Shown here one piece after another: positions 4,363 through 24,843 of a stretch of DNA of 25,963 nucleotides. Each line of letters starts with the position of its first letter. Positions within the stretch are counted from its first letter, which is position 1. The notes beneath the pieces were generated by a model. The model had not been told where the DNA came from. It did not search any database and saw only the letters and a program-made list of their open reading frames with translations. The position numbers were made by a program, and so were the translations under genes. This DNA is from a virus. Its lineage: Duplodnaviria; Heunggongvirae; Uroviricota; Caudoviricetes. Where the stretch lies: the IMG/VR virus record IMGVR_UViG_2563366982_000005; one strand, given 5' to 3'.

Positions 4363-4532
4363 TATCGCGTCCTCAACAATGAATTTTGTGATGCGGTGCC
4401 TGGTGCCTCCAGGTGACGTTAACCAGTTAACAATTAACGCCGGATACAGAGAATCCACCCATAACACTGTTTTTGGTTTTAACTGTTCCGCGTGCGCTCA
4501 GCCGCATTCACCACATCACAAAATTCACTTTA

Positions 4533-4589
4533 AAAAGGGCGGCAGAGCAGTCACGGAGTAAAACTGATACCGCCAAACGTCACCAGAAA
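4533..4589 (-). ncRNA. dicF: DicF small regulatory RNA
   Basis: Minus-strand sequence UUUCUGGUGACGUUUGGCGGUAUCAGUUUUACUCCGUGACUGCUCUGCCGCCCUUUUU matches the DicF sRNA as I recall it, ending in a GC stem plus U-run intrinsic terminator; positioned between ydfC-like genes and dicB. Confidence 0.7.
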
Positions 4590-20899: not shown

Positions 20900-20975
20900 G
20901 GCCCTTTAGCTCAGTGGTGAGAGCGAGCGACTCATAATCGCCAGGTCGCTGGTTCAAATCCAGCAAGGGCCACCA
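20900..20975 (+). tRNA. tRNA with CAU anticodon (Ile2-lysidine or Met type)
   Basis: 76 nt, acceptor stem GGCCCTT/AAGGGCC, anticodon loop CTCATAA, T-loop GGTTCAAATCC, 3' CCA encoded. Confidence 0.8.
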
Positions 20976-20984
20976 TATCACATA

Positions 20985-21061
20985 CCGCCATTAGCTCATC
21001 GGGATAGAGCGCCAGCCTTCGAAGCTGGTTGCGCGGGGTTCGAGTCCTCGATGGCGGTCCA
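20985..21061 (+). tRNA. tRNA-Arg (anticodon UCG)
   Basis: 77 nt, acceptor CCGCCAT/ATGGCGG, anticodon loop CTTCGAA, T-loop GGTTCGAGTCC, CCA encoded. Confidence 0.75.
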
Positions 21062-21075
21062 TTTATCGGCATTCT

Positions 21076-21152
21076 GCGTTGTTAGCTCAGCCGGACAGAG
21101 CAATTGCCTTCTAAGCAATCGGTCACTGGTTCGAATCCAGTACAACGCGCCA
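21076..21152 (+). tRNA. tRNA-Arg (anticodon UCU)
   Basis: 77 nt, acceptor GCGTTGT/ACAACGC, anticodon loop CTTCTAA, T-loop GGTTCGAATCC, CCA encoded. Confidence 0.8.
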
Positions 21153-21322
21153 GACTTATTTTTCCCGGCTCGCTTTTGCGGGCCTTTTTTGTATCCGCGC
21201 CACGCCCGGCGCATATCAACCACAGAGCCTTTCGGGGGTGAGCTTACGGAGTGGTCAGTGTGACTTTCTCTGTGGGCAGATCGCTCCCGGGCGTTGGCTC
21301 ACCCACCCAAAGGAACGTCACA

Positions 21323-21754
21323 ATGCTTGGAATCTTCAAAAAGAAAACCCGCAGAGCGTCTGCGGAAATTAAAAAGTTTGAAAAACGCGATCTGGCACAG
21401 GCAGTGATTAACGCTGCATACCTGGTGGCTTATGCCGATGGTGAATGTGAGGCTTCCGAGAAAGCGAAGATCGAACAGGTATTACGTAACCAGCCCACCT
21501 TGTCCGCGTTTACGTCAGAAATTAATGCGATTAGCGCAACCATTATCGGTCAGCTGGATACGAACTTTAAAATTGGTCGTCGTGCGGCGTTACGTGAGAT
21601 CGAGGATGTGAAACACGATACGCGTGAAGCGGAAGACGTGCTGGATGTGGCGGTGGCCATTGCCGAAGCAGACGGCGAAATAGAGCCGGAAGAGCGCAAG
21701 GTGCTGGAAGAGATTGCCGGTGTTCTGGGCCTTCGTCTGGAGAATCATCTGTGA
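21323..21754 (+). CDS. TerB-like (tellurite-resistance TerB family fold) protein
   Basis: 143-aa frame from internal ATG with AAGGAA SD inside the 167-aa track ORF; repeated A-x-x-x-V/A-A-x-A-D-G-E motifs (AAYLVAYADGECEASE; VAVAIAEADGEIEPEE) typical of TerB-like helical domains. Confidence 0.55.
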   Translation: MLGIFKKKTRRASAEIKKFEKRDLAQAVINAAYLVAYADGECEASEKAKIEQVLRNQPTLSAFTSEINAISATIIGQLDTNFKIGRRAALREIEDVKHDTREAEDVLDVAVAIAEADGEIEPEERKVLEEIAGVLGLRLENHL

Positions 21755-21762
21755 CGGTAAAA

Positions 21763-21915
21763 ATGCGTCTGGCTGTGGTTGCGCTCCTGCTGTTTCTGGT
21801 GGTGATGGTGGACTTCAGCAGCCGGATAATGTCAGTGCTGGCTGACGGTGTGCTGGTGGCGGGTGTGGTGGTTGTTGCTTTCCCGTTGCTGAAAAAGAAA
21901 GCATCAGGCGATTAG
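21763..21915 (+). CDS. Small hydrophobic peptide (50 aa), possible membrane protein
   Basis: Hand-translated MRLAVVALLLFLVVMVDFSSRIMSVLADGVLVAGVVVVAFPLLKKKASGD; two hydrophobic segments, C-terminal lysines; starts 9 nt after TerB-like stop; below track cutoff. Confidence 0.35.
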   Translation: MRLAVVALLLFLVVMVDFSSRIMSVLADGVLVAGVVVVAFPLLKKKASGD

Positions 21916-21950
21916 CAGGGTATCAGTTACCCGTTGAAATTTTTAAATAC

Positions 21951-22178
21951 CTCACAATTCAGGCGGTTGACTGTTGTCTGGTTTGCGGGGAGTTTGTTAA
22001 AAGAAACTGGCATGGTGAATCCCCCTGTGCGGAGGGGCAATCAGCAACTGGTGTTTTGTCACCGACCCTTATCCTTTCTGTGCGGGTTCAGGTGCTGATA
22101 CTGAACTCACCGGGAGGCACCCGGCACCATGCAATGGCACATAGTGCCACTCTCCAGCCCCTCTCCGGAGGGGCTTTT
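21951..22178 (+). repeat. Structured repeat element, copy 1 (conserved hairpins plus terminator)
   Basis: Shares with copy 2 the blocks CTCACAATTCAG..TTGAC, TTTGTTAAAA, GCATGGTGAATCCCCCTGNGCGGAGGGGC, CTGAACTCACCGGGAGGCACCCGGCACCATG and AGCCCCTCTCCGGAGGGGCTTT; ends in a GC hairpin followed by a T-run. Confidence 0.6.
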
Positions 22179-22369
22179 CTGTGCCGGATACATCACAGTT
22201 TCTGGAACCTTAGGTACTACAGTATCAGTCAGGGTGCTATATTTTCAGATGTGATGAAAGCCTGTCAGCAGGCAGGGCGTATCGGAAATGACCCAGTAGA
22301 GAAAACGTTGACTCAGATACCGGTGCTGAGTTACCGGGAAACCGGCATCACATGACCGCTATCCTTCCA

Positions 22370-22396
22370 GGCCCATCCGCTCCGGTGGGCCTTTTT
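22370..22396 (+). terminator. Intrinsic terminator-like hairpin between the repeat copies
   Basis: GGCCCA-(loop)-TGGGCC followed by TTTTT. Confidence 0.45.
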
Positions 22397-22433
22397 ACTG
22401 CAGAAAACAGGTTCCCCGTTAAATGCTATGTTG

Positions 22434-22665
22434 CTCACAATTCAGTAAGTTGACAGTTGCCTGTCAGACTGGGCATTTGTTAAAAAAATTTCGCATGGTG
22501 AATCCCCCTGAGCGGAGGGGCGACTGGTGACGGTATAATCTCTGATTATCAAAACGAGAATGACGCGGGTTTAGTGGCACCGGGCTGAACTCACCGGGAG
22601 GCACCCGGCACCATGTGCATGATGATACAGATACGCGGCTTTAGCCCCTCTCCGGAGGGGCTTTC
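22434..22665 (+). repeat. Structured repeat element, copy 2
   Basis: Same conserved blocks as copy 1 in the same order, with divergent spacers; terminal hairpin GCCCCTC-TCCG-GAGGGGC plus T-rich tail. Confidence 0.6.
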
Positions 22666-22880
22666 TTGTGGGCAAAAAAAGCCCGAGTGGGTTCGGGCAA
22701 CAGCATGAGATATACATTTTTATAATCGAATGGATTTTAACCAGAATTCATAAGGCTGCGCAACTGCGCGGTCTTTTTCGAATTGCGGGCTGTCGTCTCT
22801 CTTCTGCCATTGTCCTGTAACTTCCGGACTTCAGCCCGCTCCTTATTTTACTCACAATATTATCCCGGCCGGGAGGATTC

Positions 22881-24422
22881 ATGGCATTTAAACACTATGA
22901 CGTGGTCAGGGCGGCATCGCCGTCAGACCTTGCGAAACGACTGACACAAAAACTGAAGGAGGGGTGGCAGCCATTTGGCAGTCCGGTGGCCATCACGCCT
23001 TATACCCTGATGCAGGCCATTGCGGCGGAAGGTGATGTCACCACACCTGTGGTGGTGAAGCCGTCGGATGGAGAAGGCGCAGTTATCAGCACCACCAGCA
23101 ACCCGGAGTATTACTTTGTTGTTGCCCTGGCCGGGCAGTCAAACGGTATGGCGTATGGTGAAGGGCTTCCGCTGCCGGAGACATATGACCGTCCGGACCC
23201 GCGTATTAAACAGCTGGCGCGTCGCAGCACTGTCACGCCGGGTGGTGCGTCCTGTAACTACAATGACATTATTCCTGCGGACCACTGCCTGCATGATGTT
23301 CAGGATTTGAGTAAGTTTTCACACCCGAAAGCCAGCGCAGCTCAGTATGGATGCGTGGGGCAGGGATTACATATCGCGAAGAAATTGTTGCCGTTTATTC
23401 CGGCGAATGCCGGTATTCTTCTGGTTCCGTGCTGCCGTGGTGGTTCTGCATTTTTGGCGGGCGATGAAGGTACCTTCAGCGAATCCACCGGCGCAAGCGA
23501 GACCTCGGCACGCTGGGGTGTAGATAAGCCACTGTACAAGGACCTGCTTACCCGTACTCAGGCCGCACTGAAGGCCAACCCTAAAAATATTCTGCTTGCA
23601 GTGGTCTGGATGCAGGGCGAGTTTGATTTGAAACAGGGTGCATACGCCACTCAGCCGGGGCTGTTTGATTCCATGGTGGAAAAATATCGTTCTGACCTGT
23701 CGGAATTCGGAGGTCAGTGTCTCGGGGGCTCTCCGTCATCGGTTCCCTGGATTTGTGGCGACACGACCTACTACTGGAAGCAGACTTATTCTTCGCAATA
23801 CGATGCGGTGTATGGTGCATACAAGACGAAATCCGCAAAAAAAATCTTCTTTGTGCCGTTTATGACGGATGAAAACGGGCGAAATGTGGGTACCAACGAG
23901 CCGTCAGAAGATCCGGATGTTGCGGATATTGGGTATTACGGAGCCGGTGGTCGAACGGACGCCAAAACCTGGACGACGGCTGACCGTAAAACGCATTTTG
24001 GATCATGGGCACGTCGTGGGATTATTTCCGACCGTCTGGCAACGGCGATTCTTGTGCATGCCGGGAGAAACGCTGAATTCATTACCGGAAAACAGCCTGA
24101 TACGGTGAAGCCCACCGGACCTTCCGGTGAAGGTACGGAGAGAGAGCCGGAAGCCCCGGTCAGTAACCGAACCCTGATGAGTCTGCTGGCGTCCGGCGAA
24201 GACCTGGCATCACAGGGCTGGCGCTATTATCACAAACCGGCGAGCGGAGACAATGTTAACAAAAACATTGCTGAAGCGGTGGTCAGTGATGCGGGGGCTA
24301 CGGGAGGTAAGGCCCTGCAACTGAATAAACCGGAAAACCACATCTGGTTTCTGGAGCATGATGCAGCCGGACAGGGAGTGGAGTTACTGAAGAAGGGGGG
24401 GACGTGTGAGCGTACGGTTTAA
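22881..24422 (+). CDS. NanS-p-like esterase (DUF1737 N-terminus plus sialate O-acetylesterase/SASA-type domain)
   Basis: 513 aa; GGAGG SD; GQSN motif (VALAGQSNGMAYGEG) characteristic of SASA/SGNH-like carbohydrate esterases; position upstream of lysis genes as for nanS-p in Stx phages (recalled). Confidence 0.7.
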   Translation: MAFKHYDVVRAASPSDLAKRLTQKLKEGWQPFGSPVAITPYTLMQAIAAEGDVTTPVVVKPSDGEGAVISTTSNPEYYFVVALAGQSNGMAYGEGLPLPETYDRPDPRIKQLARRSTVTPGGASCNYNDIIPADHCLHDVQDLSKFSHPKASAAQYGCVGQGLHIAKKLLPFIPANAGILLVPCCRGGSAFLAGDEGTFSESTGASETSARWGVDKPLYKDLLTRTQAALKANPKNILLAVVWMQGEFDLKQGAYATQPGLFDSMVEKYRSDLSEFGGQCLGGSPSSVPWICGDTTYYWKQTYSSQYDAVYGAYKTKSAKKIFFVPFMTDENGRNVGTNEPSEDPDVADIGYYGAGGRTDAKTWTTADRKTHFGSWARRGIISDRLATAILVHAGRNAEFITGKQPDTVKPTGPSGEGTEREPEAPVSNRTLMSLLASGEDLASQGWRYYHKPASGDNVNKNIAEAVVSDAGATGGKALQLNKPENHIWFLEHDAAGQGVELLKKGGTCERTV

Positions 24423-24843
24423 GTTGCCGGGTTCACTGGTGCCGAATCAGTTTGCCCTGGGCATTTACTGGCAGTTGTCGTCCCTGCCGGAGGGAGTGAC
24501 GCTGGCAGAGGAAGGCAACGACATGCTGATGTCCTTCTTCCTGCAGACGGATGCGACGAACCTGAACGCGATGCACCACAAGAAGCCGAATGCGAAGCTG
24601 GATACGTTCGGGGTCTTTGATAACGGATGGCACACACTGGCTTTTGAGTTTGCCGGAAACAACAGCATTCAGGTGACGCCGGTACTGGATGAGAAACGGG
24701 GGACGCCGTTCACACTGGTGAAATCTCCGGCATCAGGGGCGGCGGACAAACTGCAACTGACAGGCATATCAAAGGCGGCGACATATACGCTGCTGATTGA
24801 CAGTGTGAAGGTGGAAGTGAACAACGCGGATGCCGCGGCATGA
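24406..24843 (+). CDS. Probable C-terminal portion of NanS-p-like protein as a separate frame
   Basis: 145-aa ORF starting GTG and overlapping the 3' end of the esterase ORF by 17 nt in another frame; combined length (~658 aa) is near the size I recall for full-length NanS-p. Confidence 0.45.
   Translation: MSVRFKLPGSLVPNQFALGIYWQLSSLPEGVTLAEEGNDMLMSFFLQTDATNLNAMHHKKPNAKLDTFGVFDNGWHTLAFEFAGNNSIQVTPVLDEKRGTPFTLVKSPASGAADKLQLTGISKAATYTLLIDSVKVEVNNADAAA

Follow-up and report, generated by a model that had tools for sequence, protein, structure and literature searches.

Copies of the catalogued prophage small RNA gene STnc100, with a covarying pseudoknotted 5' domain, at the stx-equivalent site of a lambdoid prophage

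The window analysed here is a 25,963-nucleotide stretch of Caudoviricetes DNA (IMG/VR record IMGVR_UViG_2563366982_000005), in which Q, a tRNA cluster and genes for a TerB-family protein and a DUF3927 protein are followed by small RNA (sRNA) genes, nanS-p and the lysis genes (Table 1). The TerB and DUF3927 genes sit where Stx phages hold stxAB, in the moron site of an ExPEC-type E. coli lambdoid prophage. A preliminary description of the sequence had placed a duplicated element at the stx-equivalent position, and this was borne out by an Stx2 phage contig (L003) in which 104 nt separate stx2B from the start of the homologous unit, itself followed by nanS-p. A convergent AsxR/AgvB-like sRNA of 53 nt, which the preliminary description had overlooked, converges on the last element of the cluster and lies 8 nt from its terminator. 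It scored 63.0 bits against the Rfam AsxR model (RF02703, threshold 63) and 43.4 bits against AgvB, and its AsxR membership is borderline because the score margin is zero.

Two copies of one element, with all five of the shared blocks described earlier in the same order and place, were found at 21951-22178 and 22434-22665. A repeat search of the window paired 21951-22038 with 22434-22521 (88 nt, 80% identity), 22101-22131 with 22585-22615 (31 nt, 100%) and 22156-22183 with 22643-22670 (28 nt, 93%). The window contains exactly two occurrences of the 31-mer, with 0.00 expected from 100 shuffles; the repeat is real and far above chance. In the Rfam/Infernal scan that had been proposed as a check, the two copies, hereafter units 1 and 3, were identified as full-length STnc100 (RF02076, model positions 1-206) with 139.7 and 165.5 bits, which is 3-3.5 times the curated gathering threshold of 47 bits. 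The preliminary description had counted two elements; both are real, but a third, diverged unit in the middle (unit 2, approximately 22235-22397) had been missed. Its Rfam STnc100 score of 30.1 bits (E = 4.7e-5, at 22225-22398) lies under the threshold, and unit 2 is therefore a diverged STnc100 relative and not a formal Rfam member. A covariance model of the 5' domain built in this analysis gave 112.3 bits for unit 1, 58.2 bits for unit 2 (22249-22353, E about 1e-12) and 106.1 bits for unit 3, and the P1 and P4 helices of unit 2 carry compensatory changes. Identical middle units flanked by two STnc100 units are present in our loci L006, L067 and L100, and a variant middle unit occupies the same position between units in L079, L082, L092, L094, L101, L113 and L126.

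The units are thus copies of an already catalogued prophage sRNA gene, and sequence related to the element is found in 2783 of 5426 complete E. coli genomes, about half. Publications dating back to 2008-2014 already cover the STnc100 family and its location at the stx-equivalent site, and the finding is real but ordinary because the element is such a catalogued gene. Rfam-based pipelines would label these copies STnc100, and the annotation itself is of little weight.

Table 1 Features at the moron site, in window positions
Feature	Position	Strand	Basis and remarks
tRNA cluster (Ile2/Met-CAU, Arg-UCG, Arg-UCU)	20900..21152	+	downstream of antiterminator gene
TerB-family gene and DUF3927 small membrane protein gene	21324..21915	+	annotation of the identical ABU 83972 locus; ORFs
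Unit 1 upstream region	21951..21979	+	CTCACAATTCAG (21951-21962), then two overlapping -35-like hexamers
Unit 1 -35-like hexamers	TTGACT 21967-21972; TTGTCT 21974-21979	+	read from sequence
Unit 1 TG-extended -10, TGTTAAAAG	21995..22003	+	
Unit 1 structured 5' domain	22010..22132	+	Rfam STnc100, own model, helix covariation, pseudoknot
Unit 1 variable linker, AAUGGCACAUAGUGCCACUCUCC	22133..22155	+	small hairpin and CU-rich single strand; candidate seed
Unit 1 intrinsic terminator, AGCCCCUCUCCGGAGGGGCU then UUUUCU	22156..22181	+	terminator scan (22156-22175), MFE fold
Unit 2 TG-extended -10, TGCTATATT	22235..22243	+	read from sequence
Unit 2 structured 5' domain, diverged	22249..22353	+	P1 = AUGUGAUG/CAUCACAU
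Unit 2 linker GACCGCUAUCCUUCC and intrinsic terminator (22369-22392), then UUUUU	22354..22397	+	terminator scan, fold
Unit 3 putative promoter region	22434..22486	+	geometry same as unit 1
Unit 3 promoter parts	CTCACAATTCAG 22434-22445; TTGACA 22450-22455; TTGCCT 22457-22462; -10 TGTTAAAAA 22478-22486	+	
Unit 3 structured 5' domain	22493..22616	+	Rfam STnc100, own model
Unit 3 linker GCAUGAUGAUACAGAUACGCGGCUUU and terminator (22643-22662), then UUCUUG	22617..22668	+	linker predicted single-stranded, candidate seed
AsxR/AgvB-like short sRNA, convergent	22676..22728	-	own terminator 22698-22681
nanS-p-type SASA carbohydrate esterase gene	22881..24422	+	downstream of sRNA cluster

Each unit is laid out as a putative promoter with a conserved extended -10, a structured 5' domain of 105-124 nt, a variable linker and an intrinsic terminator. 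The five shared blocks fall onto this layout: the first (CTCACAATTCAG..TTGAC) is the upstream and -35 region, the second (TTTGTTAAAA) the TG-extended -10 element, the third the 5' strand of P1 with the P2 hairpin, the fourth the 3' strand of P4 with the P5 hairpin and the 3' strand of P1, and the fifth the intrinsic terminator, which a terminator scan called in both copies. In unit 1, TTGTCT is separated from the -10 hexamer by 18 nt; the -10 element of unit 2 aligns with TGTTAAAA of units 1 and 3 in the Rfam alignment. Among 48 distinct upstream 60-mers, positions -17 to -8, which cover the -10 region, form the most conserved stretch, and the CTCACAATTCAG block is kept in most type-I upstream regions; 6-7 nt lie between the end of the -10 hexamer and the first base of P1. 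A generic sigma-70 consensus scan yielded no + strand promoter ahead of any of the units, and inspection for a sigma-54 promoter, prompted by a remark on RpoN ChIP-exo, revealed no GG-N10-GC motif common to the units. Rho-independent terminators were called on the + strand for all three units. Units 1 and 3 end in short, interrupted U-tails, a suboptimal form for Hfq. The linkers (15-26 nt) are poorly conserved and differ between all three units.

The structured 5' domain of unit 1 is closed by P1 (GCAUGGUG/CACCAUGC) and continues with the P2 hairpin, a variable P3 region and the P4 and P5 hairpins. Across 142 distinct sequences, 92.7% of the cells in P1, P2, P4 and P5 were paired and 24 of 26 pairs showed compensatory changes, values reached by 0 of 500 shuffles; these counts lean towards structure because the alignment was fitted to the model, and slid controls fell to 38-51% paired. 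Covariation in the hairpins and a fold of each unit had been proposed as checks on the element. All nested helices covary, and folds were run for all three units, the single-sequence fold of unit 1 giving z = -4.1. The window units fit the consensus fold of STnc100, with its closing helix, internal hairpins and terminator. Beyond the nested helices, the 5' domain holds a strongly covarying pseudoknot. It is formed in unit 1 by AAUCAGC (J2/3) and GCUGAU (P4 loop), in unit 2 by UAUCGG and CCGGUG, and in unit 3 by ACUGGUG and CACCGG. Judged by register-free duplex energies and permutations, the unit's own loop was the best partner in 9 of 10 sequence classes and the observed sum was reached by 0 of 200,000 permutations; a count in fixed register gave 37.9% paired, a register that misfits some classes. 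Two candidate identities for the fold were set aside: a tRNA-like five-helix junction, since ARAGORN called the three true tRNAs alone and the loops misfit, and CsrA-type GGA hairpins, since half of the GGA is buried in the stems.

The preliminary description had argued that conserved structure with variable linkers marks structured RNAs and not a protein-coding duplication, and this argument holds: all nested helices covary, and the ORF that begins at the conserved AUG is itself not conserved. The alternative, that the units encode a small protein or act as type I toxin-like mRNAs, starts from a GGAGG and, 4-11 nt downstream of it, a conserved AUG at the end of the 31-nt block that opens a short ORF, which in PasD2 would encode MRTSLVLFLLSFSL. 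Some STnc100 copies of EDL933 carry ribosome footprints, with ribosomal coverage values of up to 3.2 (PMC5331693). However, the ORF meets a stop before the terminator in only 6 of 99 distinct units and runs through it in 93, it is frameshifted between PasD1 and PasD2, and the resulting peptides are unrelated. The AUG is missing in a homolog of the domain in the dicB leader (CACCGCAU) and in many genera, where P1 covaries freely. Helices P1 and P5 also take up the AUG and some of the GGAGG as paired bases. An ORF from the AUG was rejected because neither the ORF nor the AUG is conserved; at the level of sequence comparison, an ORF in the units is excluded. As far as sequence can show, the small-protein reading is refuted for the window copies, and we regard it as scarcely credible.

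Two cis-acting readings were also weighed. The elements had been described as either paralogous sRNAs or a duplicated regulatory leader. The first option is upheld by the full-length STnc100 matches, while the second is unsupported because a promoter-like element and a terminator are present in every unit and the convergent sRNA, not an ORF, lies opposite the last one. The tail types of units 1 and 3 recur with different 5' domains in other units; domains and tails reassort between units, which is evidence that the scaffold and the presumed seed tails recombine as modules. This free reassortment of tails and terminators, together with the fact that units adjoin other units or the convergent sRNA, is not what a riboswitch or cis-leader would present. 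Riboswitch-like switching between P2 and the terminator, with CCCCU..GGAGGGGC in both, was dropped because this shared sequence is not conserved in other tail types and is absent from PasD-type tails. The units could instead be mainly promoter-terminator cassettes that punctuate the late operon, so that in the lysogen nanS-p and the lysis genes stay silent until a Q-modified polymerase passes the terminators, with the short RNAs as by-products. Q-modified RNA polymerase ignores terminators in lambda, and in the window the interval from the tRNAs to nanS-p, which follows the antiterminator gene, has three + strand terminators within 700 bp. For such a role, though, a terminator alone would suffice, which leaves unexplained the promoter-like element of each unit and the covarying 110-nt pseudoknotted fold, whose conservation extends across Enterobacterales families; moreover, homologs are abundant RNAs that bind Hfq and have many RIL-seq partners, and units are also found outside late operons (L191). 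We consider late-operon punctuation very unlikely.

Taken together, we think it probable that the locus is a tandem array of three independent STnc100-family sRNA genes plus a convergent AsxR-like sRNA, each with its own promoter and acting in trans through its linker and Hfq. The array is flanked by the late promoter and the tRNAs on one side and by nanS-p and the lysis genes on the other. Transcription of each unit would depend on a putative sigma-70 promoter that combines a weak -35 (TTGnCT) with a TG-extended -10 (TAAAAR). Judging from the homologous PasD2, whose 5' end has been mapped, the RNA would start at the first base of P1, a G. Its initial 105-124 nt fold into a compact pseudoknotted multi-helix domain, as shown by covariation, and would be followed by the 15-26-nt linker and the Rho-independent terminator, with U-tail and linker predicted to bind Hfq. 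By analogy with its relatives, the RNA most likely acts in trans, as documented for PasD1/PasD2 and indicated for EcOnc27/sRNA103; the linker, as the likely seed, would pair with host and prophage mRNAs with the aid of Hfq. Since three different linkers are carried on one scaffold, three specificities would result from the array. The probable role of the 5' domain is either to shield the RNA, as the fully base-paired 5' end suggests, or to bind a further factor.

The alternative that the pseudoknotted 5' domain is itself the active part, as a protein decoy or binding site or as a nuclease-resistant stabiliser, with the tail serving mainly as terminator, would make the tandem units a means to raise dose and not seed diversity. 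The domain far exceeds the tail in conservation, shows covariation in Citrobacter, Enterobacter, Klebsiella, Salmonella, Pantoea, Rahnella and other genera, and it holds the invariant loop sequences GGUGAAU and GGAGGCA. In other Enterobacterales, back-to-back copies of the domain lie 12-35 nt apart (L150, L191, L175, L213 and L156), as measured from matches to our own model, a survey of spacings by regular expression being too strict for such closely packed arrays. There is no room between these copies for a promoter and a terminator, and in L150 and L191, where the sequence was read, a terminator follows the last copy alone. A further homolog lies in the dicF-dicB spacer, at 4391-4516 (-) in the window and 956-1081 in K-12 (L123), and keeps P1, P2, P4, P5 and the pseudoknot through compensatory changes. 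Unlike STnc100, this homolog of Qin-type prophages is situated inside an operon mRNA and not in an sRNA gene, is devoid of a terminator of its own, and has a P1 extended to about 20 bp that encloses the domain. The 72-nt form of DicF has a 19-nt 3' extension attributed to RNase III (PMC5069750), and the 3' end so generated falls inside the 20-bp helix. These observations are set against RIL-seq chimeras and a target motif of PasD that fall within the 3' linker, outside the 5' domain. In addition, no known protein-binding motif was identified in the domain, and no partner is consistently encoded nearby, the upstream neighbour being stx2B, DUF3927 or another unit depending on the locus. We hold a domain-centred function to be unlikely. 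It is compatible with the sRNA array and does not exclude it. Against the sRNA array stand the negative sigma-70 scan, the interrupted U-tails of units 1 and 3, and conservation that favours the scaffold over the presumed seed, in contrast with most sRNAs.

The dicF-dicB copy, which has no sRNA-like tail, and the back-to-back arrays also count against it and suggest that some function is intrinsic to the domain, one that base-pairing does not explain. We tentatively put forward, as a possibility we rate below an even chance, that the STnc100 5' domain is an autonomous and ancient pseudoknotted RNA module of Enterobacterales prophages with its own function, such as binding of a conserved host or phage factor or nuclease resistance, reused in three settings. 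These may be an Hfq sRNA scaffold with exchangeable seed tails, the back-to-back arrays, and a dicF-dicB element possibly excised by RNase III. Neither in the Rfam model nor in the parts of the STnc100 and DicF literature available to us did we find the pseudoknot, the dicB-leader homology or the multi-domain arrays; the reassortment of domains and tails likewise goes beyond the databases covered here. The well-supported pseudoknotted fold, the evidence for modular recombination of scaffold and tail, and the unexpected dicBF and multi-domain copies offer a handle on the role of the conserved domain.

Among known relatives, PasD1 and PasD2 of EPEC E2348/69 (EcOnc13 in EHEC) are 172-173 nt long, depend on Hfq for stability and form RIL-seq chimeras with many partners (PMC8550237). 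The geometry of their predicted promoters and the start at GCAUGGUGAAUCC are those of the window units, and the 5' end of PasD2, supported by RNA-seq and Northern blot, is the first base of P1. P1, P2, P4 and the pseudoknot are common to both, as is the context with DUF3927 upstream and an esterase downstream, and the linker that precedes the terminator holds the PasD seed UGUGAG, in the same place as the variable linker of the window units. The PasD and STnc100 families are described as related in a preprint from the Storz laboratory. Unlike the window units, PasD has no P5 hairpin (GGGAGGC runs directly into P1), a longer tail with the seed UGUGAG, a different terminator and an Rfam STnc100 score of just 41 bits. 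The window units were consequently rejected as PasD: a core is common with PasD2 (L002:2658-2829), but PasD has no P5 and carries an unrelated tail. Near-identity including UGUGAG and the terminator GGCUGCGCAU(U/G)GCGC(A/G)GCC was not found, and UGUGAG is in none of the three window units. PasA, PasB and PasC occupy different sites and strands of E2348/69. IpeX of DLP12, which we took to be a candidate member of the family, was discarded after our own model, with filters off, found nothing in the quuD-nmpC-essD region of K-12.

For STnc100 itself, a study of EDL933 lists 11 copies with RNA-seq reads, one of them Northern-positive (PMC5331693). The STnc100 consensus tail resembles that of unit 3 (AUACAGAUAC...), whereas the tail of unit 1 differs. 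The closest counterpart of the locus is EcOnc27/sRNA103 of the Stx2 phage Sp5/933W, which sits 3' of stx2B and has been detected by Northern blot and Hfq-CRAC, with no direct target shown (PMC4104026, PMC7873438). Tree et al. (2014) reported EcOnc27 and AsxR as convergent Hfq-bound sRNAs at this site in eight Sakai prophages (PMC4104026, PMC7873438). The window shares with the AsxR/AgvB anti-sRNA dyads of EHEC lambdoid prophages the convergent arrangement, here with the last STnc100 unit, although the Rfam score of its minus-strand sRNA is exactly at threshold. It also shares with EcOnc27/sRNA103 the position after the moron and before nanS-p and the convergent partner AsxR. Where the EcOnc27 locus holds stxAB and one unit, however, the window holds TerB, DUF3927 and three tandem units, and a non-toxigenic ExPEC/ABU-type prophage thus carries the regulatory RNA cargo of Stx phages in triplicate.

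Both copies of the repeated element that the preliminary description had placed here were found as described at 21300-23200 of the window. A repeat search of the window aligned 21951-22038 with 22434-22521 (80% identity over 88 nt), 22101-22131 with 22585-22615 (identical over 31 nt) and 22156-22183 with 22643-22670 (93% over 28 nt); the exact 31-mer occurs twice in the window and in none of 100 shuffles. The whole window was scanned with Rfam 15 at gathering thresholds, giving seven matches, and both copies (units 1 and 3) were recognised as STnc100 sRNAs above the family threshold of 47. A permissive scan added a diverged middle unit, which has the same helices as its neighbours and its own terminator. 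The finding belongs to an established family, in an arrangement that has been described before.

RNA features of the window, with the scan that identified each
Feature	Coordinates	Strand	Source and score
STnc100 (RF02076), unit 1	21981-22186	+	Rfam, 139.7 bits, model positions 1-206
STnc100-like, middle unit	22225-22398	+	Permissive Rfam scan, 30.1 bits, E = 4.7e-5 for that stretch
STnc100 (RF02076), unit 3	22464-22673	+	Rfam, 165.5 bits, model positions 1-206
AsxR (RF02703)	22676-22728	-	Rfam, 63 bits, exactly its threshold
DicF	4537-4588	-	Rfam, gathering threshold
Fourth domain copy	4516-4391	-	Own domain model, 46.5 bits, E ~1e-9
Three tRNAs			Rfam and ARAGORN

Single-sequence folding of the three units brought out helices P1, P4 and P5 and the terminator, at z = -4.1, -2.7 and -1.5. 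Relatives were collected by searching viral contigs with the conserved pattern (120 loci) and one genome per species with a gapped pattern (111 loci, in genera including Citrobacter, Enterobacter, Klebsiella, Salmonella, Leclercia, Kosakonia, Pantoea, Buttiauxella, Rahnella and others), and matches were aligned to a covariance model built for the 5′ domain. P1 and P4 reached 99.5% pairing in the E. coli-type set (47 distinct sequences), with compensatory changes in six of eight P1 pairs and all eight P4 pairs. In the cross-genus set (142 distinct sequences) pairing holds in 92.7% of cells, and both sides have changed in 24 of 26 pairs, so the suggested hairpins do covary; none of 500 shuffles reached this and slid controls dropped to 38-51% paired. 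Despite the bias toward structure of alignments fitted to a covariance model, the helices are secure because of the effect size and the variety of pair types. Family membership and structure are demonstrated here. The conserved AUG could instead open a small ORF, but among 99 distinct units just 6 have a stop ahead of the terminator, the peptides are unrelated and the AUG is lost wherever P1 covaries; this reading is extremely improbable. The argument that a conserved structure with variable linkers marks RNA rather than a coding duplication holds, since the ORF is not conserved and the helices covary.

The strand following P2 (J2/3) is complementary to the P4 loop, a pairing absent from the Rfam STnc100 consensus structure, and strand and loop change together, falling into discrete classes: AAUCAGC with GCUGAU in unit 1, ACUGGUG with CACCGG or CACCAG in unit 3, UAUCGG with CCGGUG in the middle unit, AAAUGAUC with GAUCAUUU in PasD of EPEC, and several more. 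Two tests support this pseudoknot. Among ten class representatives the own P4 loop was the best partner of J2/3 in nine, and the summed energy was reached by none of 200,000 permutations; across genera (112 distinct duplex sequences) own pairs averaged -8.96 kcal/mol versus -4.62 ± 0.19 when permuted.

The domain also occurs outside the sRNA genes. A fourth copy, on the minus strand, fills the spacer that separates DicF from the dicB start codon (4362), and K-12 Qin carries the same spacer copy (L123, 956-1081). Compensatory changes preserve P1, P2, P4, P5 and the pseudoknot (CAGUUAA with UUAACUG), and P1 is lengthened to ~20 bp (4528-4509 with 4398-4379). PMC5069750 attributes a 72-nt form of DicF to RNase III cleavage. 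This form exceeds the 53-nt one by 19 nt, and its 3′ end, measured from the end of dicF as annotated in K-12, falls inside the extended P1. Homology of this spacer to the STnc100 domain was not found in the available portions of the STnc100 and DicF literature examined. In Enterobacter, Pantoea and related genomes, two to four domain copies are spaced 12-35 nt apart and therefore leave no room for a promoter and terminator between them. In L150 (7187-7803, minus) and L191 (4287-4563, minus) a terminator was read only after the last copy; L175 and L213 are spaced as L150, and L156 as L191. The layout of such arrays suggests multi-domain RNAs, some 300-650 nt in length. Together with the dicF-dicB copy they suggest an independent role for the 5′ domain, beyond what base-pairing of the tail explains. 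That the window units themselves function chiefly through this domain is unlikely, though partly compatible with the explanation preferred below. Exact domain-pattern matches also turned up on three very short contigs (L161, L166, L203) whose labels are Prolixibacteraceae, Nanosynbacter MAG and Xanthomonas pisi; contamination with enterobacterial DNA is the likeliest source.

Domain types and 3′ tails (variable linker plus terminator) reassort between units: L008 joins a unit-1 domain to a unit-3 tail, L016 a unit-3 domain to a unit-1 tail, and L024 an STnc100 domain to a PasD-like tail. As the PasD seed UGUGAG sits in the tail and tails reassort, the three window units share a common scaffold and differ in their candidate seeds. 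The same triple array, with a middle-type unit flanked by two STnc100 units, occurs in L006, L067 and L100, and a variant in L079, L082, L092, L094, L101, L113 and the E. albertii locus L126. We consider it probable that the array comprises three independent sRNA genes, each giving an RNA of 150-175 nt. Its 5′ domain, being fully paired, would stabilise the RNA or act as a scaffold, and the linker and U-tail, with Hfq, would base-pair in trans with mRNAs. Binding of Hfq and the existence of targets are proposed by analogy with relatives. The intrinsic terminators called at the 3′ end of all three units might alternatively punctuate the late operon, which we regard as very unlikely. The remaining interest lies in the conserved domain.

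Over its 1 kb the region matches prophages of ABU 83972, ST131 and further strains of ExPEC type at 100% identity. Some match is present in 2783 of 5426 complete E. coli genomes, and in 345 it covers at least 80% of the region. In ABU 83972 the order is RusA, antitermination protein, DNA methyltransferase, tRNA-Ile/Arg/Arg, TerB-family protein, DUF3927, an unannotated gap (the sRNA site), SASA esterase (nanS-p), holin, lysozyme and terminase. The assignment to the stx-equivalent locus was right, because in the Stx2 phage contig L003 a homologous unit starts 104 nt past stx2B, ahead of nanS-p. At 22881-24843 the window has a nanS-p-type esterase ORF of 513 aa and, after it, an overlapping ORF of 145 aa, against a gene of ~653 aa in ABU 83972. 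The cause may be a frameshift, or the C-terminal module may differ; some identical-flank genomes have a DUF6645 protein annotated instead. The AsxR-like short sRNA converges on unit 3, AgvB matching more weakly, and its variable 5′ end decides which core sRNA would be sponged.

Eleven STnc100 copies with RNA-seq reads, one Northern-confirmed, are described for EHEC EDL933 in PMC5331693. Tree et al. 2014 (PMC4104026) and a review (PMC7873438) present the Hfq-bound EcOnc27 (sRNA103) as an STnc100 copy 3′ of stx2B forming a convergent "dyad" with AsxR, and place dyads between PR′ and the lysis genes in at least eight Sakai prophages. Overexpression of sRNA103 raised fimZ and espA transcripts, no direct target being established. 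PasD1 and PasD2 (172-173 nt) are Hfq-dependent with many RIL-seq partners (PMC8550237), and are related to STnc100 according to a 2026 preprint.

From its coordinates, the PasD2 5′ end is the G of GCATGGTGAATCC, homologous to window bases ~22010 (unit 1), ~22249 (middle unit) and ~22493 (unit 3). Conservation in 48 distinct upstream sequences peaks at -17 to -8, reading TTTGTTAAAA or TTTATTAAAA, a predicted TG-extended -10; units 1 and 3 carry a TTGnCT hexamer 18 nt ahead of it, and the block CTCACAATTCAG is conserved farther upstream. A generic promoter scan made no call at these sites, so the unit promoters rest on conservation and PasD2 homology, and we infer their use from relatives. CTCACAATTCAG (21951-21962, 22434-22445) contains CUCACAA, which includes the PasD RIL-seq target motif CUCACA and can pair with UUGUGAG, the PasD seed. 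The match may be fortuitous, or the site may have a role in read-through transcripts only. The -35 region (21967-21979, 22450-22462) resembles a 7-bp tandem duplication (TTGACTG TTGTCTG and TTGACAG TTGCCTG); PasD-type promoters have a single TTGACT at 18-nt spacing.
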